Below, piece by piece: positions 6,500 to 49,132 of a stretch of 64,000 nucleotides of DNA. Origin of the DNA: Ostreococcus lucimarinus (taxonomy: Eukaryota). The position numbers and the translations under genes are program-made. The first letter of the stretch is position 1. Each line of letters begins with the position of its first letter. The notes under the pieces were generated by a model, which was not told the DNA's origin, made no database searches, and saw only the letters and a program-made list of their open reading frames with translations. The stretch lies in NCBI GenBank assembly GCA_000092065.1, contig CP000583.1, one strand, 5' to 3'.

Positions 6500-6530
<31 letters not shown>

Positions 6531-6543
6531 TCTATTATTGTAA
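4165..6543 (+). CDS. Pentatricopeptide-repeat (PPR) protein with an Arg-rich, presequence-like N-terminus and a poly-Asp C-terminus
   Basis: Repeated 35-aa helical PPR-like units (HTAVMQAYVRAGRYGDAFNWL, TVMNGAAKAGDRATVQEIETMM, TYNALFRCAAQSGSFAEYAPLVMNEM, LKPDKYT). The track ORF 3724..6543 is an in-frame 5' extension through GC-rich leader; I placed the start at ATG 4165 (MFRAVARACARA). The C-terminus [12 protein letters not shown] is encoded by a (GAC)n run at 6511..6537. Confidence 0.7.
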
Positions 6544-6695
6544 TCTCCTTCTGCACACATCCCACGCAGTTCGCGCGTCCACCGCTCTTCGCTCTTCGCT
6601 CATCGCTCAAAGCGTCTCGACTCGCGCCGAGCGCGAGCGCGCGCCAACGAAAAACCCGAACCGCTTTTTCCCCACTCGCGCGCGCTGCCCTCGCG

Positions 6696-17307: not shown

Positions 17308-18894
17308 TTACAGCTCCGCGGACGGCGATGCGAGGTCGAAAGGGGGAGAAGACGGCCGCGTTGACGCGTTGGAATCGCGCGCGGCGTCGTCGACGGTGGC
17401 GTGGGATCGATCGGCGTCGGCGGGGAGGAGGGAGAAGTCGGCGGCGCGCGAACGCCGAGACGCCGACGAAAGGAGCGGCGGCGCGGAGACGCACGGGATG
17501 ATGATCTTGCACGCGGCGACGAGCACGAGGAAGGCGGTGAGAGGTGACCACGAACGATCGGTTGGAATGACGGCGCCGGTGGTGTCCGTGCGCGTGGGCG
17601 CACCGATGTGTAGGGCGCGGACGACGCCGGCGGAGACGTAGGCGGAGACGAGCGCGCCGACGTCGCTGGCGAAAATCAGCGCCGCGAAACCGACGGCTTC
17701 GAGGTTTTGCGGAGCCATGATCGCGCCTAATGTGACGATTGGCATGTAACCCACGCGCAAGCCAAAAATTGCGAGCGCGTTGACGATAGATAACGCCGCC
17801 ACGGCGCCGGTTGCGGGCGGCCGCCACACGATGAAGAGTCGACAGAGACCCAGCGCCGCGTCTACGACGGCGCCGAAGACGAACATCATCCACGTGGGCG
17901 ACGAGACGAGAAGCGCACGAATCTTCGTCAACGTTCCGGCGTCGTTTTCACCCACAGAACTACCAGACGCGCTTGCGTCTCCGAACGCCCAACCGAACGC
18001 CGCCGGCGCGGCGAGCGCGCCGAGCGACGTAAAGAACGCCACCAAACCAAACTCATAATCCTTCATCCTATCGCTGAACACGGCGTACGTATACGACGCG
18101 AATGTATCCAACGCCGTCGGTGCGATGCGGTATAAAAACACCAACGCGGCGCACCGTAAAAAATCAACCTCGGCGAGCGGCGCGTACGCCTCCTTCGCTC
18201 GCGCCGTCCACGACGCGCACGACCGCGACTCCATTTCACGCTCATCTTCTCTTCCCGAATCGACATCTCGCGATATATCACTCTCATCCACGCTCACTAA
18301 CGCCACAGCGATCGCGACGAGCATCCAAATCCCGCTCGCCGCCGCCGCCGTCCGCGCGCTCGCCGCCGCCAGTCCTCCCGCGCTCGCTAAATCCCCCACC
18401 ACGCTCCCCGCCGTCCTCGCCGCCATCGCGCACGCCTGCGCCATCACCACCTCATCCCTCGACCTTCCCGCTTCCCCGCCGAACCTCTCGACGACGTATC
18501 CATCCAACGACGCGTACGCGTGCGCCGCGCCCGCGCTCGCCAGCGTCCCGAACCCGTACGTCTGCGCCGTCGTCCGCGCCGCGCTCGACCCGAGCGCGCC
18601 CGCCAGCGCGACCGCGCATCCGAGCGCGACGTGCGCCGCTCGCGTGCCCCCCCTCGCGCGCGATCGGTCGCTCACCGACGCGTACAGCGGCTTTAACGTC
18701 GCCACCGCGAACACAAAGGCGTAAAAGCGATTCGCGCCCTCGGGCGTTTCGTCCCACGCGAGCGCGCGATTCCGCACCAGCGCGAGCGGCGTCGTCGACG
18801 ACTCCACGGCGAGGGTCAGGAAAAAGTAGCACGCCAGCGCCGGGGCGTGACGCGCGAGCTCGGCGCGCGTCGGGCGCGTCATACTCTGACGCAT
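17308..18894 (-). CDS. Predicted multipass membrane transporter (MFS / folate-biopterin-transporter-like), family uncertain
   Basis: About 10 to 12 hydrophobic segments across the ORF. The start is uncertain (the track ORF starts at 18993; internal Met candidates at 18894 or 18882 avoid overlap with the first exon of the divergent UBL gene). Confidence 0.4.
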   Translation of the reverse strand: MRQSMTRPTRAELARHAPALACYFFLTLAVESSTTPLALVRNRALAWDETPEGANRFYAFVFAVATLKPLYASVSDRSRARGGTRAAHVALGCAVALAGALGSSAARTTAQTYGFGTLASAGAAHAYASLDGYVVERFGGEAGRSRDEVVMAQACAMAARTAGSVVGDLASAGGLAAASARTAAAASGIWMLVAIAVALVSVDESDISRDVDSGREDEREMESRSCASWTARAKEAYAPLAEVDFLRCAALVFLYRIAPTALDTFASYTYAVFSDRMKDYEFGLVAFFTSLGALAAPAAFGWAFGDASASGSSVGENDAGTLTKIRALLVSSPTWMMFVFGAVVDAALGLCRLFIVWRPPATGAVAALSIVNALAIFGLRVGYMPIVTLGAIMAPQNLEAVGFAALIFASDVGALVSAYVSAGVVRALHIGAPTRTDTTGAVIPTDRSWSPLTAFLVLVAACKIIIPCVSAPPLLSSASRRSRAADFSLLPADADRSHATVDDAARDSNASTRPSSPPFDLASPSAEL

Positions 18895-18906
18895 CGGCGC
18901 CGCGTC

Positions 18907-21194
18907 ATGGCGACGGCGTCCATCGACGCCCTCGGGCCGAGCGAGCGCGACAGCGTGCGCGTGAAGATACGCGTGCATCCGAGCGGCGAACACTTCGTGC
19001 GCGTGCCGAAGACGGTGCGCGAGACGACGCGAACGCGACGACGCGAAGCGAAGCGAGGGGACATCTTAAAATAACCGACGCGAGCGCGCGGCGGCGCGGT
19101 GACGATCGCGGCGGCGAGGCGGAGGCGCGAAAACGGCGCGCGGCGAGGCGTTCTCGAGGACTGACCGAGCGACGACGGCGACGATCGCAGGCGCTGATGC
19201 CGGCGGTGAAGCGAATCGTGGAGGGCGTCTCGGGCGTGCCGGCGAACGCGCAGCGGTTGCTGTGTCGAGGACGCGTGCTCGCGGACGAAGCGTCGATGGA
19301 GAGCGCGCGAGTGGAGGATGGAGACACGCTGCTGCTGGTGACGCGAGCGCCGGAGACGGAGGCGAATCCGAATTTGGCGAGGGATCCGCACGCGCCGGAA
19401 AACGCGGAAGCTCGCGGAAACGGACGAGGCGAGGGGACGATCGGGGACTTGTCGCAGATGATAACGTCGTTACTCACGGCGAATCCAGCGATGTTAGGGG
19501 CGGTAGGACCGGCGGGGGGGGCGGTGACCGTGGAGTTTAGCATCGGCGGACCGCCGATGGGGGGCGGGGGGGCGCGAGCTCCGGCGGCGGGTCAACGCCG
19601 CGAAGAGCGGGCGGCGGGCCGGGGTGGGCGTGGACAACCCACGAACGCCACGGCGACGACGGCGGTGCAGCAAAACACGCCCGAAGAGACCTTGCGTAGA
19701 TATCTGCAGAACGTTTTACGGTTGTTGCGCGGTTTACAAGTGCGCTCGACGCCGTTGTCCACGCCGGGTGATGGAAACTCGGTCGCGAGCGAGGACGCAT
19801 CTCGGACGATAGAGCAGCGTCCCATACATTTTGGCGTGCAATGCGATGCGTGTGAGGTTATTCCCGTCCGAGGGACGCGGTACAAGAGCGTGGCTCACGA
19901 CGATTACGATCTGTGCGAGCGTTGTTTCTTCGCTGGTCGAGGCGCCGCGTGCGGACCGTACGCGAAGCTCGACTTGCCGTTGCCGGCTGGTTTACCCCCA
20001 GTCGTTCAAAACGACGATGAAACGGACATGAATCAAGGCACAACACGTGAACAACGCAGTGAAGCCGATGTGGATACTCTCGGTGGCATGTTGAGCACGG
20101 CGGGAGAGATCGCTCGTCAAGCCGCACCGCTCATCGATGTCGTCGCGGCGAGATTCGCTCGAGACAGTAGGCAAAACACAGTCGAGACGCAGGCCGCGAA
20201 CTTGCAAGTCGCCAGTCTAATGCATTCAGTCGGCGCGCTTTGGTGTGAGCTCGCGCGATGCATGGCTGTCGTGCCACCGCCTCCAGGCGTCATGACACCA
20301 CAGGGTGCCGCGATCGCCGGCGACGACATCAACAACGCCCAAAGTTTTTTTAGCTATCCGCAGGTATCTTACATCGCTAATTCAGGTGAGTTTCCGCACA
20401 CTCGACCGCCTGGGATGCCATTGCATACCCAAGACGGCCTTTTTGTGCAAGGAAACCCTCAAGCTCAGGCTGTGAGACCTGTAGGCGTCATGCATGTCAT
20501 GCACCAGGTGCATGGATTGCAGCAAGGCTTGGAAGGTTTGCCGCCAGAGCTTCGCGAACTGCTGATGCGTCAGGCGGCGCAAGCTACACCAGCGCCAGGT
20601 ACTAATCCTGCCGCCTCTGCCGCTACGACTGAGGCGCAGCAACCGCCGCCGCCTTCTCAAATGGTCAACCCGCACGGTCGTCGGCAAGCGCAAGCGCAGT
20701 CTTCACAGAGAGCGTTGAGTCGATTTTTGGGATCTGTACTTAGGGCAATTCCGAGTCCGAGCTTCATGACGTCGCAAGCTGATCACACCATCGACGCGAC
20801 GACACAAAGCGGCGGTATTCAAATCCCTACCGTCCCCGCGCATCGGGATTCAACGACTCTCGCGCATGATTTGAACTCTGCGGTGACGGGCGCGGCGGGT
20901 CAACGCCCTCCAGTGGCGCCGAGTCAACCCGTCGGCACGGTCCCAACGAGCGCGACGAGCGCAAACGACAGCATTTCTCGCTCTGGACAAAACGAAACGC
21001 CGAATCGCGCTCGAACGCGTGGTGATTCCAAGGAGGAGGACGCCAATGGGCGCGCGGCAAAGGCGTCCAACACTGGGAACGGCATGTCTCCCGCCGCGAG
21101 CGCCGCTCACCTCGCGAGAGATCAAGCGACGAAATCGAACTTAGGAGCGAGCACTTCGCACGTCACTCGAAATGAGGAAGACGACAAAGAATAA
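18907..21194 (+). CDS. Ubiquitin-like domain plus ZZ-type zinc-finger protein with a Pro/Gln-rich C-terminal region; two exons
   Basis: Exon 1 18907..19014 (MATASIDALGPSERDSVRVKIRVHPSGEHFVRVPKT) and exon 2 19191..21194. The intron 19015..19190 has a GTGCGC donor and CTGAC 26 nt before the CAG. Splicing reconstitutes a complete ubiquitin fold (..VRVPKT|ALMPAVKRIVEGVSGVPANAQRLLCRGRVLADEASMESARVEDGDTLLLV). The ZZ finger is CDACEVIPVRGTRYKSVAHDDYDLCERCF. Track ORF 18102..21194 includes a non-coding 5' extension. Confidence 0.65.
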
Positions 21195-21260: not shown

Positions 21261-22373
21261 TTACATGGATATTCTCCCGCGCCGTCCCCTTGTGCGCAGC
21301 ATCGCGAGCGCTAACGCTCCGACGGCCGCGCCTCCGAGATGACCAGCGTGCGCCACACCAGACCCACGCGAATCTTGAATGCCCACGATATCTCTCATGA
21401 GGAATAAACCTCCTAGTAGTATGCTAGGCACTGGTACGATCGCGTAAAGGTAAATCGTCCGCAGTGGGTAAAGCAACACCTCGAACGCCACGATCGCGTT
21501 CACCGCCCCGCTCGCTCCGAGAGCGGCGGGAGTGAAGTAATACCCTCGCTTCGCACCGCTATCTTCTACGAACCTAGCGACGTACGCGTCGAGACGGTCG
21601 AAGAAGTTCCCTCGGCCCTCCTTGTACCGCTCCATTCGTTTGCGTCGTTGCCTCGCGCACCACGCCACGTGCGCGGCCGAAGCCCCGACGCCCCCGACGC
21701 AATACAGCGTGAGCAAATACCGACCTCCGAATCGCTCGCACACGCTTCGCCCGAAAAAGTACAGCGCGATCATGTTCATTCCCAGATGCGTCAAATCAAA
21801 ATGAGAAAACGCCGAAGTCAACATCGTGTGCCATCGCCCGTGCGCGAGCGCCTCCTCGCTCACCATGAAATTCTTCCGCATGAACCGCCCGTCCTCGGTC
21901 GTGGCCCAGGCGTAATACACCGCCCCATTCAGTCCTATCAGCGCCCACAGCGCGCGATCGCCGTCCGCGGATCCACCGAGCGCGTCCCAACCGCGTCCCG
22001 GCGGCGGCGCGCCGCGGTACGCGCGTCTCGTCCCGTCCCACCCCCCGGTCCTCCCCGCCTCCCTTCGCGCGCCTTCGAACAGCGACGACGACGCGTGGGA
22101 CGCGCGCGCGGACGTCGCCGTCGTCGCCGTCGCCATCGCGCGTCCCGCGGCCGTCGTCGCGCGCGGCCGTCGTCCAGTCATCGTCTCCGTCTCAACCACC
22201 CTCGCGCCCGCGCGCGCGCCCGCGCGCGCCACCTCGCGCGCGACGCGCGTCGCCGTCGACGCGCGCATGATTTTAGACGACCGCGCGCTCGAGCGAGCGA
22301 ACGCGCGCGCGCGCGAGCGACGGACGCGTCGTGAAGTCGCACTACAAATCATCCGCGTCGAGCTAAAATACAT
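21261..22373 (-). CDS. Rhomboid-family intramembrane serine protease (PARL/Pcp1-like) with a long R/A/S-rich N-terminal presequence
   Basis: Catalytic serine in ALGASGAVNAIV and histidine in AHAGHLGGAAVG, within the conserved TM architecture. Start Met uncertain. Confidence 0.68.
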   Translation of the reverse strand: MYFSSTRMICSATSRRVRRSRARAFARSSARSSKIMRASTATRVAREVARAGARAGARVVETETMTGRRPRATTAAGRAMATATTATSARASHASSSLFEGARREAGRTGGWDGTRRAYRGAPPPGRGWDALGGSADGDRALWALIGLNGAVYYAWATTEDGRFMRKNFMVSEEALAHGRWHTMLTSAFSHFDLTHLGMNMIALYFFGRSVCERFGGRYLLTLYCVGGVGASAAHVAWCARQRRKRMERYKEGRGNFFDRLDAYVARFVEDSGAKRGYYFTPAALGASGAVNAIVAFEVLLYPLRTIYLYAIVPVPSILLGGLFLMRDIVGIQDSRGSGVAHAGHLGGAAVGALALAMLRTRGRRGRISM

Positions 22374-23097
22374 CCCAGCCTCCCTCGCCTCGCCTCGCGC
22401 GCCTCGCGCGCCGCGCCGCGCGCGCTACAAGAACTTCTTCCTCGGTCGTCCGTACCGATCGTCGTTCGCGTCCTGCGATCGTCGTCGTCGTCGTCAGTCG
22501 TCGGTCGATTCGATTTAGGTTCGTTCGATCCCTCGCCCGTTCGCCGCGTCGCGCCCGCGCGCGCGCGTCGCCCCCGCGCGCGCGCCGCCCGCGCGCGCGC
22601 ACGCCTCGCGTCGCCTCGCGTCGCGCACGCACGAAATCCCTGACGGCGCCGCGATAGATGAGCGCCGGGACGAAGACGCCGAAGACGGCGAAGAGCCCGA
22701 TCGTTCGCGGCGTCAGGCGGAACGCGCGCTCGATCGTCTCGCGCGCCGCGCCGTTGGCCTCGATGAAGGCGTTGGGCTTGAGCCCGGTGGGGTCGGCGCC
22801 GGCCATCGCGCGCGACGGCGACGCGACGACGCGCGGGGGTGTGCGAGCGCCAGAGCGGGACGCGGCGGGGACGACGGGACGACGGCGCCCGCGGACGCGA
22901 TCGCGCCCGCGCGTCGGCGACGAGACGACGCGCGCGGACGTCGGCGACGACGCGACGCGCGCGGACCCGCGCGCGGGCGCGACGCGACGACGCGGGGGGG
23001 AGAGGATTCGGCGTCGGGATTCGGGACGGGGACGTTCGCGTCGCCGAACGGCGTCGACGCGCCGGGCGACGGCGACGCGGGCGCGGAGAATAAGAGT

Positions 23098-24396
23098 TTG
23101 AGCTCGCTCGGGGTGTCGCCGGGAGATCTGGCGCGGCGCGCGGTGAAGGCGCGCGGCGAGGGGGACGGCGGCGCGCGAGGGACGGCGACGACGCGACGAG
23201 ACGAGACGAGGGCGCGCGAACGCGAGCGCGAACGCGAGCGCGACGAGGGAGACGCGAGCGCGATGGAGTCGGACGCGACGAGGACGCGCGACGAGGACGC
23301 GGGCGCGATGCCGAGGACGATGCGAGAGGCGCTCGGGGAGTGGCGGGGCGAGTTGGAGGCGGCGGAGGCGGCGTTTTTGGCGATTCACGCGTTGATGCTG
23401 GATTCGGGGGCGAAGACCGCGGGAGAGATTGAATTGCGCGATGGACTCGCGCGGCGAGGGTGTTACTCGGCGCGCTATGCCGTCGGAGCGCGCGGGAGAG
23501 AGGATACGGTGACGTGCTCGGTGCGCGCGCAGCCGGTGGAGTCGCGACTGTCGGTGTTCGGGACGCTGGAATCGGACGCGGGATCGGCTGGCGTCGCGTA
23601 CGCGACGCTGATTCAAGCCAGCGATTACGTGGACGAGGGGGGGTCGATCACGCCCGAGGGTTGTCGCGCGCTGTGGGCGAAAGTGAAAGAAGCGATGACT
23701 ACGAAGCTCTTCGAAGCGGCCGAGGCGCAGTTGGCGGGGATCCTTTCGCCCGGCACGCTCATGTCTCTTCCCACGGACGTCAAACGTAGAATCGCCGAAA
23801 ATCTAGACGCGTACGGGTTGGCTTACTGCGCGTGCACGTGCAAAGAACTCCGCGCGGTGTGCTCGGACGACGAGCTTTGGACGCGGCTTTTACAGACGGA
23901 TTTCGACGTGCCTCCGATGCCAACTGGAATTTCTTCTCGCTCGTTGTACAACAAGCACGCGATGCGTAGATCGGCCGAGCGAGAGGAACGATTACGGATG
24001 GAGTCTTACCATCCGATGCCTGGTCGTTTGCCGCGTCATGGCTTCATGCCCGATCCCGATCGCGACATTTACGCCGGAATTCCCGGCCACGTGCCCGGCA
24101 TCATCGGCGGCGATTACGATTTGTGGCCCGGCGGTCTCAACCCGAATCCGCCGCCGCGCCCGATCCCTGGTTACGGTAGAGGAGGATTAGGTGGACCCGG
24201 ACGACCGAGAGGAGGCTGGCCCGGCGGAGGGCCTCCTTTCCCGCCGCAACCGGGCGGGTTGCCTTACAATCCCGATCCCGACGCCGATTTGCGAAACCCT
24301 CCCGACATTCCCGGGCGAGGCCGAGGCGGATTCCCGAGCATGCCTCCCAATCCGGGATGGGACGGACGACCACGACCGCCGCCTGATTTCTTTTAG
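23098..24396 (+). CDS. F-box protein with a Gly/Pro-rich C-terminal tail (FBXO7/PI31-like architecture)
   Basis: F-box motif LMSLPTDVKRRIAENLDAYGLAYCACTCKELRAVCSDDELWTRLL. The C-terminus has dense PG/RG/PDPD repeats. The N-terminal part is Arg/Glu-rich and the start is uncertain (internal Met candidates MESDATR, MPRTMREALGEW). Confidence 0.55.
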   Translation: MSSLGVSPGDLARRAVKARGEGDGGARGTATTRRDETRARERERERERDEGDASAMESDATRTRDEDAGAMPRTMREALGEWRGELEAAEAAFLAIHALMLDSGAKTAGEIELRDGLARRGCYSARYAVGARGREDTVTCSVRAQPVESRLSVFGTLESDAGSAGVAYATLIQASDYVDEGGSITPEGCRALWAKVKEAMTTKLFEAAEAQLAGILSPGTLMSLPTDVKRRIAENLDAYGLAYCACTCKELRAVCSDDELWTRLLQTDFDVPPMPTGISSRSLYNKHAMRRSAEREERLRMESYHPMPGRLPRHGFMPDPDRDIYAGIPGHVPGIIGGDYDLWPGGLNPNPPPRPIPGYGRGGLGGPGRPRGGWPGGGPPFPPQPGGLPYNPDPDADLRNPPDIPGRGRGGFPSMPPNPGWDGRPRPPPDFF

Positions 24397-27804: not shown

Positions 27805-29325
27805 TTATACGTGATGATGCGCCTGCGTCATCGGCTGGGGCATGAGGCAGGAATGCGTAGTGTAGTCCGCCGTGCGTTTGTTGAACGTCACCACGAACAG
27901 CTTGCTCAATTGCTGCATCACGCCTTCCACTGGTGGAGGCAAAAGAACGCTCACGAGTGAATCCTCTGCTTCCAAACTGGTCTGTTCCGAAACTTTCGTG
28001 ACGTTTTCTCGACCACTCGGCAGTGGAATGGCACCCGAATACTTTTTGCGTTCCATTTTCTCCCTTTGTTCGTTCGTCCAAGCGCTCGTCGTCGCGACAG
28101 CACCGGGTTCGGCGTTAGCTTCATCGCTTCCCTTGAATTTGAAAACCTCGGTACACGACACGCGACTGAGAAGGTTGACGTGCTGTGGCATTCCCGCCGC
28201 CTTGAACGCGCTGAACCACGGATCGTTGACGTTGGTAGATTTAAGGACATTCACGATTCGGCCATCAGAAGTCTTATCTCCCCACAGCGCGATACCTTCC
28301 GCCACGGCTCTGTCCGGTAACGAAAACGTCCGCTCGTCGTCGTTTCTCATGATTTCCTCTCGCAGGGAAGTCACATTGACGCCAATCTTCGTCAAAGGAT
28401 CCTCCGGTGCCGCTGTGATGGCTAATAATCGACGACTGCTTGACGAGAATTGAGTCCCCGCCGAATTCGAGCGCGGCGCCGCGAGTCCCACCACGGATAG
28501 GGCACCCAACGCCAACGCCGTCACTGACGCGGCGACCGTTTTCTTCCGCCGCTTCGGCGCCGGTTTCTTCAAATCTAACTGCGGTGATGGCGGAGTTTCA
28601 ATGATTGGAGCGTCTAACGGCGGTAACGGCAACTTGGGCGTCATCGTCGGGTACGGCGCCGGCACCATGACGGTCGGCAACGCCACCCCCGTGGCGGCTT
28701 GCAGATTCATCCTCAGCGCGTGATTCTCATTCGTCAAGTGCATCACCATCCCTTGCAACGCCCCGTTTTGTTTTTCCAGCGCACTCGCGCGCTTTTCTAA
28801 ATCCCTGACGTACTCCCGTTTCCGCGCTCGCATGTTCTTCGCGCTCTCGCGATTGCGTCGCAATCGCTCCAATCGCTCCGCCTCCGTCTCCGTCGCGTTC
28901 CCGTCCACCTTCCCCGCGCTCCTCGCCGACATCGACGACGTCCCACCGTCGTCCGACGACGTCCCTCCGCCCTTCCTTCCGCTCCCGCACTCGCTCTCCG
29001 CGCGTCCGCTCGCGTCCTCGTTCGTCGTCGTCGTCGCCCATCCCTCGCCGTCGTCGTCCGGCAGCCAATCGTCCAACATCGACTCCAGCGCCCCGAGTTC
29101 GTACGGAAACCCCTCCAGCACCCCGTCGTCGCGCGCGCCGTCGAATTCCAACCACTCGCTCGCGTCCGCGCGCGCTCGCGCCGTCGCGTCCGTCGTCGTC
29201 GTCGTCGGCACCGTCGCGTCGTCGCGCCGCGGTCGCCGCGCGATCGTCGCGTCGCGCTCGGGCGTGCGCGGCGGCGACGTCGACGACGCGCGGCGCGCGA
29301 CGTCGACGCCGTCGGACGGTTTCAT
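27805..29325 (-). CDS. Membrane-anchored bZIP transcription factor (ATF6/CREB3/bZIP28-like topology)
   Basis: The bZIP basic region and zipper ERLERLRRNRESAKNMRARKREYVRDLEKRASALEKQNGALQGMVMHL lie near 28860. A single TM segment KRRKKTVAASVTALALGALSVVGLAAP lies near 28440..28520. It is followed at about 25 aa by RRLL (RxxL, S1P-like) and a roughly 220-aa lumenal/extracytoplasmic domain. Confidence 0.68.
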   Translation of the reverse strand: MKPSDGVDVARRASSTSPPRTPERDATIARRPRRDDATVPTTTTTDATARARADASEWLEFDGARDDGVLEGFPYELGALESMLDDWLPDDDGEGWATTTTNEDASGRAESECGSGRKGGGTSSDDGGTSSMSARSAGKVDGNATETEAERLERLRRNRESAKNMRARKREYVRDLEKRASALEKQNGALQGMVMHLTNENHALRMNLQAATGVALPTVMVPAPYPTMTPKLPLPPLDAPIIETPPSPQLDLKKPAPKRRKKTVAASVTALALGALSVVGLAAPRSNSAGTQFSSSSRRLLAITAAPEDPLTKIGVNVTSLREEIMRNDDERTFSLPDRAVAEGIALWGDKTSDGRIVNVLKSTNVNDPWFSAFKAAGMPQHVNLLSRVSCTEVFKFKGSDEANAEPGAVATTSAWTNEQREKMERKKYSGAIPLPSGRENVTKVSEQTSLEAEDSLVSVLLPPPVEGVMQQLSKLFVVTFNKRTADYTTHSCLMPQPMTQAHHHV

Positions 29326-29562
29326 CGTCGGCGTCCGGGCGCGGCGCGCGTCGCGATCGCGATCGCGCGGCGTCGCGAGATGACGTCAAGATGAATCTTC
29401 GATCGCCGTCTCGGGGCGTCTCGGAAATCTCGGACGGATCGACGGCGATCCGATGGTCCGATTGTCCGATCGGACGCGCGAGGGCGAGGGAGACGCGAAG
29501 GCGAAGGCGAAGGCGAGACGAAGGTAAAGCGTGAAACGATGCGATGAAAAGAGACGAACGAA

Positions 29563-30753
29563 TCATGGATGGTCGAAGATGTCGCGCTCGGGGGAGGCGG
29601 CGATGCTGGCGAAGACGGGGAGACGACGGAGGTCGTCGTCGTCGTCGTCGTCGTCGGAGACGTCGTCGGAGGCGCGCGCGGAGACGCGCGCGGCGGAAGG
29701 ATCGGTGGTGGTGGTGAGGGAGACGGGTTTGACGTCGGTGGTGCGCTCGGGGACGGCGCCGGGGACGGCGCGCGCGGTCGAACGGTCGTCGGTGGTGGTG
29801 AGAGTGGCGTCGTCGACGAGGGCGGAATCGTCGCGGAACGCGGCTCGACGCGCGGGACGCGGATCGAGCGGCGCGGGGGTGCCTAAGAATGCGTCTCCCC
29901 AGTCCGTGACGCCCGTCGATGCGCCGGATATGAGCGCCGATAGCGCCGTGCGGTGTTGCGTGGCCATCTCACCGGTAGACGCGACGTCATTCGGTCTGTA
30001 ATGGATGAATCGACATCGAGAACCGTACGGGCAATTGCCCTGCGCGGCAAACGTCCTGCACACCTCCGTCTTGTACTTTGGGTGACGTAGCACCGGACGA
30101 AGCTCATCGCGACCGTGTGCGAATTGACATTTGGCGCCATAACGACACGACCCACTCTCCTCCCAGCTGCGACAGAGCTCCGTCTTGTACAACGAGTGCT
30201 GTTGCTTGGGCGATCCCGGACTCGCGCCGCCGCCGTACGCCGGACTCGCGCTCAGAGACCTCGCGCCGTCATCCCGCGAGTTTCCGCCTTGATCGCCGTA
30301 CCCACCGTACGCGGGGGAGCGCGGTGACGTGAGACTGACTCCGAAACTCGATGCCGGCGACGTCGGGCTGAGATTGAGTTGAAACATCCCTTGCGCCAGG
30401 TGCGCGTCGTTCGCCTGATGCGAAGACCGAGAGTACGCGCTCGCGCTCGATCCCGTGAGATCGCTTCCATACGGCGTTTGGTGCATCGCGCGCTGCGGTG
30501 ACTGCGATACCGAATGTACACCATATCGAGACAGTATGGGCGACTGCGGTAACACCGTCGCGGTCGGGATGTCATCGTACGCGCTCGTCGGCGTCCTCGG
30601 GGGCGTTCTCGGCGGGCTCGCGCGCTCCGCGTCCGCGTACGTCGAGATCAACGCGCTCGAGAAATGCTCGGAAAGCTCCCGCGCGCGCTCGAGGGGGTCG
30701 AACAGCGCGCTCAAGTCGTCATCCTCGGCGTGCTCCGCGCCCGAGCGCCGCAT
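29563..30753 (-). CDS. Tandem CCCH zinc-finger protein (TIS11/tristetraprolin-type TZF)
   Basis: Two canonical C-x8-C-x5-C-x3-H fingers with the YKTELC lead-in: [26 protein letters not shown] and [26 protein letters not shown], 18 aa apart. Acidic poly-Asp C-terminus. Confidence 0.85.
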
Positions 30754-31059: not shown

Positions 31060-32625
31060 CTAGACGTATTTCAAGTACGTATCGAGGTGCACGCCGAGGT
31101 TTTGTGCGAGTCTTTCGGCTAAATCACGAGAGATGTTGCATTGGTACAGCCCACCCTCCATCGCGCTCCCGCGGTTGATGGAGAGCATTCCGAGCTGCGT
31201 CATGCTCGAGATTTGCATAAAGACGTCGGCGCTGAGGAGCTCCTCCTCAAGATCTGCGACTTCAGCGCCGTGTTCATCGCATGCTGAGCGTGTGATAAAG
31301 TGAAACCACGCGATAAGACGTTCGAGCTTGAAGACACGTCGTTTATCCACGGCGGCTTCAGCGGCGGCGGCTCGTTCTCGATCTTGCGCGTTTCGATCCT
31401 TGCGCTTGGCCCTTGCCACGTGCCCTTCTATTTGACCGCCAAACATGCGCTTGTCCACCTCATCAGAGTTGTGCGAGCACAGAAATGCTGCGACTAATAA
31501 GAATTTCGTCAGACGCGGGATCTCGAAATCCAAACGTCCACCCGCGCCGCTTCCCGTGGCGTCGCGCCGCACCGGCCATTCGCCGCGACCGAGAGCCAAC
31601 GCCGCCGGGCTCAGCGGCACGGTTAATCCCGTGTGCACGTTCGGTTGCTCCCGCTTCGGCGCCGACGACGAACCTCCGTCTCTCGCATTAGCGCACTCAT
31701 CTCCTTTCGTCGATCCTTTCTTCGAGTTCAACGCCGCGTACAGCGCTCGAGGTTCGGGAAGCGGATCGCCCCGCGCGCGCGCTTCCTCGTACGGCTTGAC
31801 GTACTGCGCCCACAATGGCGCCACAGTGGCGCGCAGCTCGTGTAAATTCCTACACGTCGCCGTGAACGTGTTCAGCATAACACCTAAGAACCCATTGTAC
31901 AGCATCTCGTCCGCATCCGACGGGCGTTCCTTTAACAAGATGTACCGCAGCTCCTCTCGAGAGTACGCCGGAAAGTAAACGCCCTCGTACGGCGTCGTCC
32001 CCGACGCCGAACAAAACGTATCCCAACCCTGTTCACCGATGAAAATCACGATCACCTTCCGACAACTCAACTCCGCGAGTCGCAAAAACGCATTCAACAC
32101 CGGTTCACCTCGCCACTGTAACATTCTCTGCGCCTCGTCGACGACGACGTAACACGCCCGCGCGCCCGGACTCGCCGGCAAGTGCGCGCGTAAAATCTCC
32201 ACTAAATCACTAAACCTATCGCACTTCAGCGCCTTTTTCACCTGCTCTGCGCTCGCACGTCTCAAACTCTCGCTCGACCGCACCAAATACGGCGTCAGCT
32301 CCTCCACCACCGCCTCGTACAACAGCTTCGGCGCGTGCTCCGTGGCGCACGACGCGTACGCCCACGGCCGTCCGCTCCTCCCGACGACGTCCCGCACGAT
32401 CGACGTCTTCCCCGTCACCGGCGGTCCGTGGACGTACATCGCCGGATGATCGTCCCTCGCGCCTCCCAGCGCGCGCACCAGGCCCTCGATCGACGCCTTC
32501 CGTCCTCCCCAGCGCGCGCACGCGTCGCGGATGAATCCTTCCTCGTCCCGTTCGATCGCATCGCGCGACGCGCGCGCGTCGTCGTCGTCGCTCGCGTCGC
32601 CCATCGCGACGTCATCGACGCGCAT
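31060..32625 (-). CDS. ORC5: Origin recognition complex subunit 5 (ORC5)
   Basis: AAA+ Walker A MYVHGPPVTGKTS, Walker B CYVVVDEAQ, and an ORC5 C-terminal region (RLTKFLLVAAFLCSHNSDEVDKRMF). Start at Met codon 32623..32625 (MRVDDVAMGD). The track ORF continues as an R-rich leader to 32955, abutting the RPS6 ATG. Confidence 0.7.
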   Translation of the reverse strand: MRVDDVAMGDASDDDDARASRDAIERDEEGFIRDACARWGGRKASIEGLVRALGGARDDHPAMYVHGPPVTGKTSIVRDVVGRSGRPWAYASCATEHAPKLLYEAVVEELTPYLVRSSESLRRASAEQVKKALKCDRFSDLVEILRAHLPASPGARACYVVVDEAQRMLQWRGEPVLNAFLRLAELSCRKVIVIFIGEQGWDTFCSASGTTPYEGVYFPAYSREELRYILLKERPSDADEMLYNGFLGVMLNTFTATCRNLHELRATVAPLWAQYVKPYEEARARGDPLPEPRALYAALNSKKGSTKGDECANARDGGSSSAPKREQPNVHTGLTVPLSPAALALGRGEWPVRRDATGSGAGGRLDFEIPRLTKFLLVAAFLCSHNSDEVDKRMFGGQIEGHVARAKRKDRNAQDRERAAAAEAAVDKRRVFKLERLIAWFHFITRSACDEHGAEVADLEEELLSADVFMQISSMTQLGMLSINRGSAMEGGLYQCNISRDLAERLAQNLGVHLDTYLKYV

Positions 32626-32953
32626 CGACGCCCGCGCGTCGCTCGCCGCGCGCGGTCGCGCGTCGCGCGCCGTCGTCGTCTCTCGCGCCGCGCGCGCGCG
32701 CGGCTGTCGACGCGCGTTCGAACGCGCGACGGCCGACGCGCGACGCGCGCGCACGTGGGGTTCGCGCGAGCTCCGATGCGTGCGCGTCAACCAACCGAAT
32801 GTCCGAAATAAATACAGATTCAAAACAGCACGCGGACTGTTTGCGCGTGCGATGCACACGCGTCCGTGTTTCTTCGCGGCGCGCCCCCGAGACGCGACGC
32901 GCGCGCGGGCGCGCCGCGCCGTCGCCCTCTTTCGACGACGCGCGCGCGCGACC

Positions 32954-34039
32954 ATGAAGGTGCGTCCATCGACGGGCGACGCGGGATGACGATGGGGATG
33001 ATTACGGCGCGCGACGACGGACGGCGCGCGACGACGGACGCGCGACGACGCGCGCGGACGCGACGGCGGACGCGAACGACGCGGGTTTGCGCGACGCGAC
33101 GATCGGGGACTGACGACGACGACGACGACGACGCGCGTGATCCACAGCTCAACATCGCGAACCCGCAGACCGGGGCGCAGAAGAAGATCGAGATCGTCGA
33201 TGAGAACAAGCTCCGATGCTTCTACGATAAGCGCATCTCCGCGGAGGTGGAGGGCGATGAACTCGGTGATGTGCGTGTTAGGGCTTTGCGATGCGACGCG
33301 ACGCGATGAAGCCGAGGACGCGAACGATGCGCGCGCGCGGACGCGACGGTGGTGCGCGTGGATGATTGATGAAGATAATGATGATCGTGAATTCGTACTG
33401 ACCGCGCGTGTGATGCGCTCGTTTCGTCGATAGGAATGGAAAGGCTACATCTTTAAGATCATGGGTGGCAACGACAAGCAAGGGTTTGGGATGAAGCAAG
33501 GCGTGTTGACGAACCAACGCGTGTTCTTGCTCATGTCTCAGGGCACGAGTGGTTTCCGTGGGAACGGTCGCCGTAAGGGTGAGCGCCGTCGTAAGGCGTG
33601 CCGTGGTTGCATCGTCTCCCAAGACATCGCTGTTTTGAACTTGCTCATCGTCAAGCAAGGCGACGCCGAGGTTCCGGGTTTGACGGATACCGAAGTCGCG
33701 CGCTTGCGTGGTCCGAAGCGTGCGAGCAAGATTCGCAAGCTCTTCGCGTTAACGAAGGAAGACGACGTTCGTCAGTACGTGAACACGTACCGCCGTGAGT
33801 TTGAATCCGCGACTGGCAAGAAGAAGTCCAAGGCGCCGAAGATTCAACGTCTCGTCACCCCGCTCGTCATCAAGCGCAAGCACGCGCGCGCGGCGGCGAA
33901 GAAAGTTAAGCAAGCCAAGTCCAAGGCGGAAGCCGCGGAATACCACAAGGTCCTTGCCCTCCGCATCCGAGAACAACGCGAGCGCAGAAGCGAATCCCTC
34001 GCCAAGCGCCGTGCGTCCTCCGTCGCGAAGAAGGCGTAG
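32954..34039 (+). CDS. RPS6: 40S ribosomal protein S6 (eS6), three exons
   Basis: Exons 32954..32959 (MK), 33148..33270 and 33434..34039. Introns 32960..33147 and 33271..33433 both start GTGCGT, carry CTGAC 30 to 35 nt before the AG, and end CAG/TAG. The spliced product [88 protein letters not shown].. is colinear with eS6 throughout. Confidence 0.93.
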
Positions 34040-43417: not shown

Positions 43418-45568
43418 TCAAAACCAAGGCTCGTCGAACGGCGTCGCCTTGACGACAATATTTGCCTCGGCGGGGACCGCCAATTTCCCTGGATGTCTAA
43501 GCATGACGAACACTTTCGTTTTGCCGCGACTAAAGTTTTCAGTGAGCATTTTCACTGCGTTGGCCTGAATCAAACCGGACGCTAGACCGACAGATGCCGC
43601 TGGTGCGGATACAGAAGTAATATGCCCGATGGTGTCGCCGAAGACGTCGCCGAGGTTCACGTCGCTTCGATGCTCCGAGCGAAGCGCTTTGTCCTTCTTC
43701 GACCATTGCGAGAACATACCCGACACCGTCCGATCACGACGGCGCGTCGTGTCGTCCGTCTTTTTGACACACCAAGCGTCGCGTTGTGCTTCGTTGGGGA
43801 AGAAGATCTCCGCACCGAGCGTCGGTTGACCAGACCACGGACATCGCAGGGCGACGCGAACCATCGCGTCGCGCGGATGCGAATCGCGTTCCAACTTCTC
43901 ATCGCGCACTCGAAGCACATTTCTCACCTTTACGAACGGCTCGGCGTGTCGCACGAGCGCTAAATCGCACTGAGAAACCTTGCTTTTTGGTTTCGCTCGA
44001 ATGTCGTCGAGAATATCGTCGAAAATCTCCAGACGCTTGTCCGCTCCAGCTTGGGTGTCGAGGTAATCGTCCGGGAATAGGGCGCGCGCAAAACGTTGCG
44101 CACACCACGACCATTCAGTGATTCCCACCGGACGTGCGCCGGTTTGGCACACGCCGTGCCAAACGGGAAGCATCCAAGACGAAGAAACGATCAGAGTGTA
44201 CCCTTCTATCGCTGTCACACCTCGATTGATGAGCGTCGCCGAGTATGATTTGACACCGACGGCGGCCGTTTCCTCCCATGGTCGCTCGAGCGCAGCCGCG
44301 CGCGATGCGCGTCGACTTTCGTCGTACTCGGCTTGCGTCGGCGCAACTTCCGTCGGCACCCGCATTTCACTCGAATCGGTTTGAACGCCCCAAGCAGCCG
44401 CACGAGCGTCTGGACAAACGATTCGACGGATGCCTCGGGTAGTATGCGCGCTCGAGTAAAAATCTAAATCCGGAGCCAGTTTCTGCACAATCTCGAAAGC
44501 TTTAGCACCGATGATTTCGATGCGCGCGAATGCGTCACTTTCTTCCACTTCTACGTCAGCTTTCGTGTTTGTCGCGACTCGCACCGCGACGGCGTCACGA
44601 AACGCTTCTGACGCCGACTCTTTCGCGCTCGGGTGCACCCAAACGTGCGCCTCGGCGACGCTCAACGTCTCCTCTCTCGGCGTACAGTACACCAGCGCCG
44701 GACAAATCACGCGACGTTTTGAATCCACAACGTGAATCGCAATCGCGCGTTCTCCGTCCTTGAACGCGCGCAAGTTTAGCGCTTTCTTTTCAGCCGCCGT
44801 CTTTGCTAAAACTTTGTGCACGTCGGTTCGGGCGCCCTTCACGACGAAACACGCGTTGTACGAGGAATCGTGGGCGAGCGCGGCTTGCGATATCGAACGC
44901 ATGATGAATCGCCAACCTCGACCTCGCCCCGGTCTCGCGGCGGGGACGACCCATCCCCACCCGCGAGGCTTTCGCATCGCGAACCTGCGAGCGCGCGCGC
45001 CGTCAGTCATCTCTCCAACATTTCGCCTCGTCTTCAAAAATCGAGCTTCCAAACGCCTCAGTCGATGTACCGTGCGGTAACTCTATACGCTCGTCTCCAG
45101 CGAACGCCGAAACGTTCTCGGATTGGCTGGGCGCGTGATTTCGTCATCACCGGCGTCTCTCGCGTTCGCGCGCGTCGCCTCGCGTCACCCTCCCCACCTC
45201 TTCGCGTGCCACGCGTGCGCGCGCAGCGCCTTCACCGCCGTCCCGCCTCCCGCGCGCGTCCTCGCCGCGTTCAGACGCCCTCGTCGCCGCGCGCGTCGTC
45301 GACATCCCTCCGTCGTCGCGTCCTCGCCCGCCGCCGCCGCGCGTCGCCGTTTCAAATTCGGCCTTCGCCGCGTCGCTCGCGGCGCGTGCGACGTCGCCCG
45401 TCTTCGCGCGTGTCTCGCCAGCGTCTCCACGCCCAGCGCGCGTCGTCCCTCGATCGCGCGCGTCGTCGCGCGCAGCTCGCGCGCGCGCGCCGCGACGAAA
45501 TCCCACACGCGCACGTAACGCGGCGTCGCGCTCGCGTCGCGCGCGTCGGCGACGACGACGACGTCCAT
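43418..45568 (-). CDS. POP1: RNase P/MRP protein subunit POP1, two exons
   Basis: Exon 1 45198..45568 (MDVVVVADARDASATPRYVRVWDFVAARARELRAT..ARHARRRATSHA..KALRAHAWHAKR) and exon 2 43418..44984 (FAMRKPRGWGW.. POPLD-like GYTLIVSSSWMLPVWHGVCQTGARPVGITEWSW..FPDDY). Intron 44985..45197 on the minus strand has a GTGGGG donor, ACTGAC 22 nt before the CAG, and phase 2. Splicing restores the conserved W-H-A-K-R-F-x-M motif. Confidence 0.75.
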
Positions 45569-45907
45569 CGCGGCGCGACGTCCGGCGCCGGCGATTCGAC
45601 GGCGCCGCGCCGCGCGGTCGGTCGGTTCGCTTCAATACGACGCTCGATGGGACGGGCGTTTCGAGATCGTGGCCGCGTGACTGTTTGCGCACACGGAAAA
45701 GCGCGCGGGCCGGCGGCGTCGCCGGATCGATCGCTCGATCGCGTCGGCGTCGGCGGCTCGGCGGCGCGCGCGGCATCGCGCGACGCGCCGTCGGTCGTCG
45801 GAGGCGCGAAGGCGTGGACGCTCGACGCGCGGGACGCGACGTCGATCGGCGACGCGGCGCGGCGACGCGTTCGACGCGAGACGACGACGACGCGGGACGA
45901 CGGGACG

Positions 45908-48900: not shown

Positions 48901-49132
48901 TGTTCTCTTGAAGGGAATCGTCGACGCCGCGACGGAAATTGCCAAGCTCGATAAGAAGCTTGATTTGCTCACCAAATCGACAGAAGCGCTCGTCAAAAAG
49001 ACGCAAGAAGATGGCTACGAGACCAAGGTTCCGGAGAAGGTTCGCAACGAAAACGCCGACAAGATCGCTAAGCAAGCTGAAGAAATTGATTCCATCAAGG
49101 CCGCACGTGCGGACTTTGAAGCGTTGCTGTAG
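45908..49132 (+). CDS. Valyl-tRNA synthetase (class I) with a Lys-rich eukaryote-type N-terminal extension
   Basis: HIGH (PPNVTGALHIGHALT) and KMSKS (GRKMSKSLGNVIDP), editing/CP1 domain, anticodon-binding and C-terminal coiled-coil, about 1070 aa. Start at ATG 45908; an in-frame upstream Met exists. Track ORF 44816.. is a 5' extension antisense to POP1. Confidence 0.95.
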   Translation: MAREGAMDDAATATATALMERATIDPEKAAKKAAKLAEKEAKRAKAAAKAAKAAEEKAKRDAGGGGEGKAKREKKASGPSEEDVRALESALKTPRGEMKDLVGTPMAKSYNPVAVEAAWYDWWERCGMFTPTMGTNKPKFVIVIPPPNVTGALHIGHALTNAIQDTIVRWRRMQGYEALWVPGTDHAGIATQTVVEKKLQREEGVTRHDLGREKFLERVFEWKDVYGGKICNQLRRIGSSMDWTREAFTMDEKLSKAVKEAFVRMFDEGLIYRDNRLVNWSCQLKTAISDIEVDYIELDGPTMLAVPGHTKKVEFGVITSFAYPFEDGQGEVVVATTRIETMLGDTAVAVHPEDERYKSLHGKFVLHPFNGRRIPIICDAELVDMEFGTGCVKITPAHDPNDFNTGKRHDLEFINVFTEEGLVNEQGGEQFQGMKRFECRVAITEALDKLGLYRGKANNPMRLGLCSRSKDVIEPMLKPQWWVNCQDMAKEACDAARDKRLEILPTFMEPTWFRWLENIRDWCISRQLWWGHRIPAFYVRFAGEGDDDCGMPGGSSEKMDRWVIGRDADEARVSAEKKFPGREFTLEQDEDVLDTWFSSGLFPFSVFGWPDETPDLAEFYPTSLLETGHDILFFWVARMVMMGMKLTGKVPFKQVYLHAMVRDAHGRKMSKSLGNVIDPLHVIEGIDLAALNETLVGGNLDEKERKKAQAGQKADFPDGIPECGTDAMRFALVSYTAQGRDINLDVLRVVSYRHWCNKLWNATKFAMMNLGDEYVPPADFNATFDVQSLPLAAKWVLSRLNATCASTNAGMEVYDFNTATNSVYAFWQYELCDVYIEIIKPVMSGSDEMAKKQLRDALWICLDAGLRLLHPFMPFVTEELWQRLPRTRNENTPKSIMIAEYPVAVDSWANATAESQMQIIMDSVKAFRSLKSNYNLPPRARPDVFYSVKTDDSEAAMKIDPEGLVSLAGVGELKQLAQGESAPPGCAVSIVNESVTVYVLLKGIVDAATEIAKLDKKLDLLTKSTEALVKKTQEDGYETKVPEKVRNENADKIAKQAEEIDSIKAARADFEALL

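Follow-up and report, generated by a model that had tools for sequence, protein, structure and literature searches.

A predicted membrane-tethered group-B-type bZIP factor of Ostreococcus lucimarinus and its candidate site-1-protease site

Does the open reading frame on the minus strand at 27805-29325 encode a transcription factor that is held in a membrane, and if it does, by which cut might the factor be set free? The window is a stretch of 64,000 nucleotides of nuclear DNA from Ostreococcus lucimarinus CCE9901, and the frame in question runs through 506 amino acids without interruption (Table 1). Its full-length homologues (45-99% identity) are colinear with it and start and end alike. Judged by sequence, the gene is the O. 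lucimarinus orthologue of the green-lineage group-B (“Proto-B”) bZIPs, which include Arabidopsis bZIP17/28/49 and O. tauri CEF97129.1. This is a known kind of system: the family was recognised in Ostreococcus in 2008, and the gene was therefore to be expected in O. lucimarinus. The exact sequence is nonetheless absent from the public protein collection, and the reference annotation seems to lack this exact model, which may thus need curation. Group-B identity together with membrane tethering is very likely, and identity together with release by regulated proteolysis, as a joint claim, is probable. Upstream of the gene, TGACGTCA lies 56 bp before the ATG; it was considered as an autoregulatory CRE and rejected, its frequency in the window being that of chance (2 found, 1.55 expected).

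Table 1. Features of the predicted bZIP factor, listed from the N- to the C-terminus, with positions in the window.
Feature	Position	Strand	Basis
Complete single-exon CDS, 506 aa plus stop; membrane-tethered group-B-type bZIP factor	27805..29325	-	ORF list and sequence read; homologue alignment
Acidic/hydrophobic N-terminal stretch, aa 55-100, EWLEFDG...LGALESMLDDWLPDDDGEGW; putative transactivation region	29026..29163	-	sequence read
bZIP domain, aa 147-208; basic region RLRRNRESAKNMRARKREY, five heptad leucines (176-204)	28702..28887	-	Pfam
Proline-rich linker motif TPKLPLPPLDA, aa 228-238, conserved	28612..28644	-	alignment
Basic cluster KKPAPKRRKK, aa 253-262, predicted cytosolic side of TM	28540..28569	-	alignment and charge count
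Single predicted transmembrane (TM) segment TVAASVTALALGALSVVGLAA, aa 263-283; G274 and G280 inside, P284 directly after	28477..28539	-	hydropathy
Predicted lumenal domain, aa 284-506, 223 aa	27808..28476	-	lumenal-only profile search
RRLL, aa 298-301, then A302; candidate site-1-protease-type site	28423..28434	-	alignments
N-glycosylation sequon N317-V-T; N[VI]TSL motif conserved in Mamiellales	28369..28377	-	alignment
Conserved C-terminal subdomain, aa 359-506: DPWFSAF, SRVSCTEVFKF, AIPLP, SLVSVLLPPP, KLFVVTFNKRTADYTTHSCLMP	27808..28251	-	30-sequence alignment
Cys391, one of only two lumenal cysteines, invariant	28153..28155	-	alignments
N-glycosylation sequon N441-V-T, just after AIPLP	27997..28005	-	alignments
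Cys493, second of the two lumenal cysteines, invariant	27847..27849	-	alignments

In the alignment of Mamiellales homologues, the acidic and hydrophobic N-terminal stretch shares an LGxLESxLDxL consensus, and it may act as an activation region. The basic region and leucine zipper described in the first-pass annotation are borne out by Pfam, which detects bZIP_1 over aa 148-208 (E=1.3e-9; score 38.5 bits, cut-off 27.6) as well as bZIP_2 (E=2.3e-7). The bZIP signature N158-x7-R166 is present, the heptad leucines fall at 176, 183, 190, 197 and 204, and in the full-length alignment algae and plants share without exception the basic-region residues L155, R157, N158, R159, E160, A162, R166 and R168. 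Between the zipper and the membrane segment, P230, K231 and P235 of the linker are invariant in the algal set, and the motif aligns with land-plant VPLVPIPRLK.

The same annotation had placed a K/R-rich stretch ahead of a single membrane helix, and both elements were found. The best 19-residue stretch of TVAASVTALALGALSVVGLAA has a Kyte-Doolittle value of 2.09, above the usual transmembrane threshold of 1.6; shuffled versions of the protein score 1.16 +/- 0.29, with 2.09 attained in 28 of 5000. Outside this segment the highest value is only 1.06, leaving no second TM candidate. Besides hydropathy, the direct test applied to the O. lucimarinus protein is charge bias: over the 15 residues on either side, net charge is +6 towards the N-terminus and +2 towards the C-terminus, an asymmetry that fits an orientation with the N-terminus in the cytosol. 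On these grounds, the product is predicted to be a type II membrane protein, with its acidic N-terminus and bZIP in the cytosol and the 223-residue domain in the ER lumen. Within the basic cluster, the algal alignment shows no variation at K258 and R260 and next to none at R259, and G274 is nearly invariant in it too. The cluster would act as a stop-transfer or positive-inside signal, and it is a candidate counterpart of the paired lysines that serve bZIP28 in Sar1/COPII export (PMC3935173, PMC5826264). Both the dibasic cluster and the TM glycines that define the bZIP17/28 type (PMC3935173, PMC5826264) are thus present, as KKPAPKRRKK and as G274 and G280 followed by P284. No Asn or Pro occurs within aa 263-283 that could form a helix-destabilising NP or NxxP motif; the TM of plant bZIP28 uses glycine instead of such a motif (PMC5826264). 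A soluble nuclear bZIP of the usual kind, whose C-terminal domain is globular and whose hydrophobic stretch anchors nothing, would be in keeping with the moderate hydrophobicity of a segment rich in Ala, Ser, Thr and Gly, for which a simple Hessa-scale sum is slightly positive (~ +0.9 kcal/mol). However, the Kyte-Doolittle value is rarely reached by shuffling, every full-length homologue keeps the segment, which aligns with the more hydrophobic KKVASxSFLGL...GGL domain of plant bZIP17/28-type proteins (Kyte-Doolittle 2.2-2.7), whose membrane role is experimentally established (PMC3935173), and both the charge asymmetry and the conservation of sequons and cysteines in the lumenal domain are in line with a membrane protein. 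A soluble factor is therefore extremely unlikely.

The anchored reading supposes that bZIP and hydrophobic segment belong to one transcript; the first-pass annotation had named separate transcripts as grounds for refutation. In the MMETSP transcriptome of the congener O. mediterraneus, complete ORFs do carry the bZIP, TM and lumenal domain together. The anchor might still be lost through unconventional, IRE1-type splicing of the mRNA, in the manner of bZIP60, CrbZIP1, XBP1 and HAC1. Such a route has its precedents, since Correa et al. (2008; PMC2492810) propose Proto-B as the source of group K (bZIP60), and Chlamydomonas bZIP1 is spliced by IRE1, with the added remark that green-algal substrates may lack a perfect CxGxxG (PMC11077094). 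Yet none of the CNGCNGN pairs between zipper and TM would shift the frame: the excised lengths are 33, 39 or 72 nt, and the TM is retained. The whole CDS has only one CxGxxG pair whose members both fall in a 7-nt hairpin loop closed by a stem of 3 bp or more, and this excision too is in frame (39 nt). A frameshifting splice was accordingly rejected, as every candidate excision keeps the frame and the TM. Moreover, bZIP60-type proteins do not have the long lumenal domain that this protein shares with bZIP17, and mRNA-level removal of the anchor is hardly credible here.

This lumenal domain, which had been estimated at about 220 residues and proves to be 223 long, links the protein by sequence to land-plant relatives. 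A profile built from it, with neither bZIP nor TM, retrieves 83 proteins at E<=1e-3 among 1.84 billion, green-algal relatives first and then land-plant proteins at E of 1e-5 to 1e-9. Matches of 600-830 aa align at their own C-termini. Among them are proteins named “bZIP transcription factor 17” from Brassica (XP_013636928.1) and Linum (CAN0890649.1), along with a Spirogloea protein. The order of motifs is colinear with that of plants, running from the bZIP over the PxPxLK linker, the basic cluster, the TM and the juxtamembrane R-x-L as far as the C-terminal motifs. The likeness to bZIP28 and bZIP17, first proposed from topology alone, is now one of homology. In the algae-plant alignment the lumenal invariants are C391, E393, F395, V458, S459, L461, F477, V479, Y488, T490, C493 and P496, and six of these (C391, E393, V458, V479, Y488 and C493) are still invariant across 30 diverse green-lineage sequences. 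The stretch SLVSVLLPPP matches group-B motif B6, [PS][AV]SS[MV]VVSVL[AV]DPRE, of Correa et al. (PMC2492810). The sequon at N317 fits lumenal exposure. Land-plant bZIP17-like proteins have a sequon at the position aligned with N441 (NFT, NVT, NIS or NIT), and of the 48 homologues scored, 45 have one or more sequons between CTEVF and YxTxSC. A Pfam search of the lumenal domain found no model, and a PDB sequence search with the lumenal profile gave only chance-level matches (E ~0.8). In the AF2 model of the C-terminal subdomain, two helices and four strands form a core of moderate confidence. The model of the whole lumenal domain, made from a nine-sequence alignment, was discarded as unusable (pLDDT 41).

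The feature that would tie the protein to site-1 protease (S1P) is the RRLL. The first-pass annotation was right about the motif but not about its distance from the membrane, which is 15 residues from the 19-residue hydrophobic core rather than about 25. It is the sole R-x-x-L in the lumenal domain, and it conforms to the ATF6-type pattern, R-x-(hydrophobic)-(L/K/T) within ~20-30 lumenal residues of the TM. A cut after L301 would leave a stub of ~18 lumenal residues. Taken by itself, RRLL is weak evidence, because it comprises four residues and because 1.7% of shuffles also have an R-x-L-[LM] among their first 40 lumenal residues. As far as sequences can tell, the real evidence for the site is its conservation across homologues and not the motif itself. 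In the lumenal alignment (A2), neither R298 nor L300 varies; in the full-length alignment with plants, RRLL lines up with the G-R-V-L core. All 20 full-length chlorophyte/prasinophyte-type homologues scored have the basic cluster, the TM segment and an R-x-[LVI]-[LMT] at 15-52 residues from the TM, and the algal forms of the juxtamembrane site include RRLL, RKLL, RRLM, RHLL and RSLL. Among streptophyte-type homologues, 11 of 28 fit the same pattern and the aligned core reads G-R-V-L-x.

The distal motif that is called the “canonical S1P site” of the group (B5, KNRRI[LM]) has the opposite distribution. It is absent from the O. lucimarinus protein, where ERKKYSGAIPL is aligned in its place. Distal R[RK]x[LM] is found in none of the 20 chlorophyte/prasinophyte-type homologues versus 26 of the 28 streptophyte-type ones. 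The S1P motif is already reported as missing from some group members by Correa et al. (PMC2492810). On the strength of these alignments, the distal RRIL is treated here as a feature of a streptophyte subgroup and not as defining the family. We would tentatively suggest, with less than even confidence, that the juxtamembrane R-x-L-L is, for green-lineage group-B bZIPs as a whole, the functional first-cut site and the ancestral one, kept perfect in prasinophytes and chlorophytes and degenerate (G-R-V-L-x) in streptophytes, and that the distal RRIL is a later streptophyte addition. If so, Ostreococcus would keep the simplest ATF6-like relay of S1P and site-2 protease (S2P), this unfolded protein response (UPR) arm would have originated before the chlorophyte-streptophyte split, and a possible reason would emerge why mutating or bypassing RRIL or S1P gives confusing results with Arabidopsis bZIP28.

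Does the candidate protease exist in these algae? The supplement of PMC6713707 lists S1P (MBTPS1) homologues for O. tauri, M. commoda and B. prasinos. A fragment of the O. tauri S1P (first 399 aa) matches animal MBTPS1 and plant SBT6.1 at E ~1e-100; the matches listed for it are animal and plant S1P at ~50-70% identity, and neither an O. lucimarinus nor an O. tauri protein is among them. At its prodomain junction, the O. tauri S1P carries RRGRRLL-ARS, whose RRLL-A is the same as in the bZIP factor. This junction is where S1P autoprocesses, site C of human S1P being RRLL. Sites of the RRLL or RHLL form are those cut in arenavirus glycoproteins, at S1P site C and in ATF6. In the window itself, none of the 20 large ORFs scanned encodes S1P or S2P, the only candidate being an unrelated rhomboid.

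The gene, its topology and an intramembrane release could all be as proposed and the lumenal trimming still be done by something other than S1P at RRLL, either by another lumenal or Golgi protease or by S2P alone, with R-x-L-L serving as a retention, BiP-binding or export signal. Arabidopsis offers a precedent: according to secondary accounts of Iwata (2017), bZIP28 is cut by S2P and not by S1P, its processing being unchanged in s1p mutants (PMC9237531, PMC5826264), so the family paradigm is not uniform. In addition, the streptophyte core G-R-V-L-x would put Arg at P3 if the cut fell after Leu, and only 11 of the 28 fit R-x-[LVI]-[LMT]; conservation of the motif therefore need not mean S1P specificity. 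Against this stand the algal RRLL, a textbook S1P site at an ATF6-like distance from the membrane, its recurrence as RRLL-A in the O. tauri protease, and the report that Arabidopsis bZIP17 is cut by S1P (PMC9237531). Weighing these points, trimming by other means appears unlikely, and for S1P acting at RRLL specifically we put the chances as even. The contrast between juxtamembrane and distal sites bears on which protease first cuts bZIP28-type factors, and perhaps it will be useful to researchers on the plant UPR.

Extrapolating from the plant and animal paradigm, the following sequence of events can be proposed for the S1P/S2P route. At rest, the lumenal domain would hold the protein in the ER through BiP binding and/or its disulphide state. 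Upon ER stress, the factor would leave in COPII vesicles, aided by the dibasic cluster. In the Golgi, a site-1-type protease would cut after R298-R-L-L301 and leave the short stub, after which a site-2 metalloprotease would cut inside the glycine-containing TM. The freed fragment of ~270 residues would then enter the nucleus and activate chaperone and secretory-pathway genes. Release of the O. lucimarinus factor by regulated proteolysis, which had been put forward from topology, is likely when the plant and animal factors are taken as guides; that ER stress is its trigger is somewhat less so, though still favoured. A protein that stays anchored, subject only to constitutive turnover or sequestering partner bZIPs at the membrane, would agree with the lack of a processed form in the dataset. 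But what is conserved from prasinophytes to angiosperms, namely dibasic cluster, TM glycine, juxtamembrane R-x-L, lumenal sequon and cysteines, is what characterises the regulated intramembrane proteolysis (RIP) route of bZIP28 and ATF6 (PMC3935173), and an invariant basic region would be useless to a DNA-binding factor kept permanently out of the nucleus. A factor without regulated activation is accordingly very improbable.

By best match, the O. tauri orthologue of the factor is CEF97129.1/XP_003078183.2/OUS43874.1 (52-55% identity, 96% coverage), which matches it wholly or almost wholly in basic cluster, TM, SRRLLA site and C-terminal motifs. CEF97129.1 is probably OtbZIP3 (JGI model 31718), which was placed in “Proto-B” and for which a UPR role was proposed (Correa et al., 2008; PMC2492810). 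With land-plant bZIP17/28/49 the O. lucimarinus factor shares the colinear bZIP, PxPxLK linker, dibasic cluster, glycine TM and juxtamembrane R-[VL]-L core, and also the lumenal motifs WF, CTEVFxF, (A/I)PLP with its sequon, VVSVLxxP and FVVxx...YxTYSCxLP. It differs from them in a lumenal domain shorter by ~100-150 residues, in an overall identity of only ~24-26%, and in the position of the arginine motif: the land-plant RRIL directly precedes IPLPG, 200-280 residues beyond the TM, whereas the alga has its perfect RRLL 15 residues past it. Proteins of the bZIP60/CrbZIP1/XBP1/HAC1 class also combine a bZIP with a C-terminal hydrophobic anchor and a UPR role. Unlike them, the alga has no frame-shifting twin-hairpin site and has the long conserved lumenal domain that they lack. 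CREB3/OASIS proteins are likewise type II membrane bZIPs that have an RxxL close to the membrane and are processed by S1P and S2P, but they carry lumenal tails that are short or bear no relation to the algal one, with no homology detected. The layout of the cleavage site is closer to that of animal ATF6 than to land-plant bZIP28. Like ATF6 alpha and beta, the algal factor is predicted to be a type II membrane bZIP with lumenal N-glycosylation sequons, and its R-x-L-L lies at the ~15-20 residues past the TM seen there; the ATF6 site is RHLL, and one prasinophyte-type homologue has exactly this sequence. Each also has two conserved lumenal cysteines, C391/C493 in the alga and C467/C618 in ATF6 (PMC10739154). 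The helix-breaking NxxP/NP motif of ATF6 and SREBP is missing from the algal TM. A membrane-tethered bZIP arm of the ER-stress type, lumenal sensor domain included, would thus be present in one of the smallest free-living eukaryotes, and it would therefore be older than the divergence of chlorophytes and land plants.

The gene is encoded on the minus strand by a single uninterrupted ORF (27805-29325; 506 codons and a stop), which begins at the earliest possible start codon downstream of an in-frame stop. On it the first-pass annotation had read a bZIP domain, a K/R-rich stretch, a single transmembrane (TM) helix and a C-terminal domain of about 220 residues, and all of these are found (see table). 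Judged by Pfam curated thresholds, the bZIP domain is matched by bZIP_1 and also by bZIP_2 (E=2.3e-7), and it carries an N-x7-R signature. The best Kyte-Doolittle 19-mer of the hydrophobic segment scores 2.09, against a maximum of 1.06 elsewhere in the protein and 1.16 +/- 0.29 in same-protein shuffles (2.09 reached in 28/5000), and the N-side flank carries a charge of +6, the C-side flank one of +2. Hydropathy and flank charge together fit a predicted single-pass protein with a cytosolic bZIP domain. The proposed RRLL motif is present too, but its distance from the hydrophobic core is 15 residues and not about 25.

Parts of the bZIP protein (506 aa)
Feature	Position (aa)	Detail
N-terminal start	upstream of 55-100	Ala/Arg/Thr-rich
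Acidic-hydrophobic stretch	55-100	
bZIP domain	148-208	Pfam bZIP_1, 38.5 bits vs threshold 27.6, E=1.3e-9
Heptad leucines	176-204	five
Proline-rich linker	between bZIP domain and basic cluster	
Basic cluster	253-262	KKPAPKRRKK
Hydrophobic segment	263-283	TVAASVTALALGALSVVGLAA; sole one in the protein
C-terminal domain	284-506	223 residues
RRLL	298-301	only R-x-x-L in the C-terminal domain
Cysteines of the C-terminal domain	C391, C493	exactly two
N-x-T sequons of the C-terminal domain	N317, N441	two

A full-length search returns 17 proteins, two of them remote (~30% identity), and every relative at 45-99% identity has the bZIP, the TM and the same C-terminal domain. The O. tauri relative (CEF97129.1 / XP_003078183.2 / OUS43874.1 by cluster look-up) is recorded as “Basic-leucine zipper domain” and “putative bZIP family transcription factor.” To keep bZIP similarity from deciding the outcome, family membership was tested with a profile restricted to the lumenal domain (alignment A2). 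An exhaustive HMMER search of 1.84 billion representative proteins with this profile finds 83 at E<=1e-3. Below the prasinophyte-type relatives come many proteins of 600-830 aa, matched over profile positions ~106-225 at their extreme C-termini, whose sequences show land-plant group-B architecture. Their cluster names include “bZIP transcription factor 17” (Brassica, Linum), in keeping with the bZIP17/28-like character first proposed, and a Spirogloea (zygnematophyte) protein. Full-length algal and plant sequences are colinear from one end to the other: they have in common the basic region and zipper, the basic cluster, the juxtamembrane R-[LV]-L, S-x-x-x-C-T-E-V-F-x-F and LSKLFVV...Y-x-T-x-S-C-x-x-P, and also, in algal and land-plant forms respectively, the linker (PKLPLPP and VPLVPIPRLK), the TM (VAAS...LG...G and VASISFLGL...GGL), DPWF and QQWF, AIPLP and IPIPLPG with an N-x-[ST] sequon after it, and LVSVLLPP and VVSVLVDP (motif B6 of Correa et al., PMC2492810). 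C391, E393, V458, V479, Y488, and C493 are invariant in 30 diverse green-lineage sequences. As judged from these alignments, the likeness is homology rather than resemblance, and the gene belongs to the group-B-type bZIPs. Eight O. tauri bZIPs were listed by Correa et al. (2008; PMC2492810), who grouped OtbZIP3 with B and b as “Proto-B”; they noted a TM domain and a site-1 protease (S1P) site in group-B members and proposed an unfolded protein response (UPR) role for OtbZIP3. The O. tauri orthologue identified in our searches is probably this same gene (JGI model 31718, a putative match of model to accession), so this kind of protein is already known, in Ostreococcus too. The gene is an orthologue within a family that has been described in Ostreococcus and is well studied in Arabidopsis.

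That the protein is soluble, its hydrophobic segment being no membrane anchor, is unlikely, because this segment is conserved among homologues and aligns with the plant TM domain established experimentally, and because conservation extends to the lumenal sequon and cysteines. Nor are the bZIP and TM found on separate transcripts, the case raised against the original proposal: the O. mediterraneus relative in the MMETSP transcriptomes, a congener only, is flagged as a complete ORF on one transcript, and its ORFs carry bZIP, TM and RRLL together. There is no support for removal of the anchor by an IRE1-type splice of the bZIP60 and CrbZIP1 kind, since every candidate CxGxxG pair excises a multiple of 3 nt, in frame, and the TM is kept. 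The observation of a membrane-tethered bZIP is real, and its interpretation is supported.

Around the bZIP gene lie nuclear genes that are ordinary for a green picoalga. Four neighbouring ORFs (cullin, tRNA m5U methyltransferase, Ndc1-like protein, and WRC-domain protein) are residue-for-residue identical to RefSeq proteins of O. lucimarinus CCE9901, and others encode a PPR protein, ORC5, a tandem CCCH zinc finger, a cation-diffusion facilitator, a proteasomal ATPase, and an aminoacyl-tRNA synthetase. The exact 506-aa sequence has no match in a collection of 15 billion proteins, and a 99%-identical protein (P0001) has the same neighbours on contigs from marine metagenomes; this bZIP model is therefore probably missing from the reference annotation or drawn otherwise there. 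The exact sequences of 31060-32955, 21261-22373, and 18102-21194 are likewise missing from that collection, and their models too are probably absent or drawn otherwise. These ORFs interleave with the exactly matching neighbours, and the CCCH ORF (29563-30753) is in the collection from a sequencing-run assembly only, not from NCBI. This hint of a missing gene model is one part of the modest added value of our analysis. A perfect CRE/C-box palindrome, TGACGTCA (29381-29388), stands in the 237-bp spacer between the bZIP and CCCH genes, 56 bp upstream of the bZIP start codon; with 2 copies in the window against 1.55 expected by chance, it is not significant alone. Elsewhere, 6126-8597 (+) joins three mitochondrial-carrier repeats (E=1.5e-45) and two cyclic-nucleotide-binding domains (E=5.7e-31) in one ORF, an unusual fusion among mitochondrial carriers whose uncertain GTG start overlaps the preceding PPR ORF. 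In the 1438-aa ORF at 44816-49132 (+), a class I aminoacyl-tRNA synthetase of Leu/Ile/Val type, the catalytic domain begins only at residue 483, reflecting either a long N-terminal extension or a wrong mechanical GTG start. The 1149-aa ORF at 57328-60777 (+) has both a BSK1-like TPR region and a PRMT/PrmA-type methyltransferase domain, with weak Pfam scores throughout (E 1e-6 to 1e-7), and at 22001-24000 a local G+C peak (0.71 vs ~0.60 for the window) has overlapping mechanical ORFs on both strands.

The position of the candidate cleavage site was scored in 48 non-redundant full-length homologues (20 chlorophyte/prasinophyte, 28 streptophyte). A juxtamembrane R-x-[LVI]-[LMT] occurs 15-52 residues past the TM in 20/20 of the former and in 11/28 of the latter, whereas a distal R[RK]x[LM] before (A/I)PLP occurs in 0/20 and in 26/28, 200-280 residues past the TM. 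At the juxtamembrane position the algae have RRLL, RKLL, RRLM, or RSLL; one core-chlorophyte-like sequence has RVLT, and two more have RHLL and RHLT. In streptophytes this position is reduced to a G-[RK]-[VI]-L-x core, and the distal site is mainly RRIL, which is motif B5 of Correa et al., their “S1P canonical site” (PMC2492810). The RRIL contrast sets land-plant bZIP17-like homologues (P0043-P0104) against algal ones (P0002-P0031, P0051, P0097). Since the site is juxtamembrane in every algal homologue scored and distal in none, and ERKKY aligns in our protein where plants have NRRIL, the alga has a geometry of ATF6 type, in which the putative cut leaves a short stub, rather than that of land plants. 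This layout bears on reports, as relayed in reviews, that Arabidopsis bZIP28 is cut by the site-2 protease (S2P) and not S1P, and that S1P acts on bZIP17 (Iwata 2017, via PMC9237531 and PMC5826264). The comparison of the two R-x-x-L positions is the sole point beyond the literature found, and the other part of the modest added value.

A scan of 20 large ORFs finds no S1P or S2P gene within the window. A rhomboid-family intramembrane serine protease ORF (21261-22373, minus strand; Pfam Rhomboid E=2e-23) lies ~5.4 kb from the bZIP gene, by proximity only. MBTPS1/S1P homologues are recorded in O. tauri, Micromonas commoda, and Bathycoccus prasinos (Xu et al., 2019 supplement, PMC6713707), which represent the three sequenced Mamiellales genera. 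In the O. tauri S1P (CEG00474.1; PMC6713707 supplement), residues 1-399 match animal “membrane-bound transcription factor site-1 protease” and plant SBT6.1 (E ~1e-100), and RRGRRLL-ARS stands ahead of the catalytic domain. Its R-R-L-L-A string is identical to that of the Ostreococcus bZIP juxtamembrane site. Human S1P autoprocesses at RRLL (site C), and this is the position where animal S1P does so. If the algal enzyme autoprocesses likewise, it would cut the R-R-L-L-A string that the bZIP also carries. The presence of S1P in O. lucimarinus rests on phylogenetic bracketing, because none from this species is among the matches listed for the 399-residue O. tauri fragment, a saturated list. A first cut by a protease other than S1P is the serious alternative.

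No Pfam model covers the C-terminal lumenal region and a PDB sequence search finds no relative of it, so the gene is filed as a green-lineage group-B bZIP which would be ATF6-like in its working, its demonstrated homology to ATF6 being limited to the bZIP domain. Like ATF6, the algal protein is a type II bZIP with R-x-L-L ~15-20 residues from the membrane, lumenal glycosylation sites (sequons in the alga), and two conserved lumenal cysteines, C391/C493 here and C467/C618 in ATF6 (PMC10739154).
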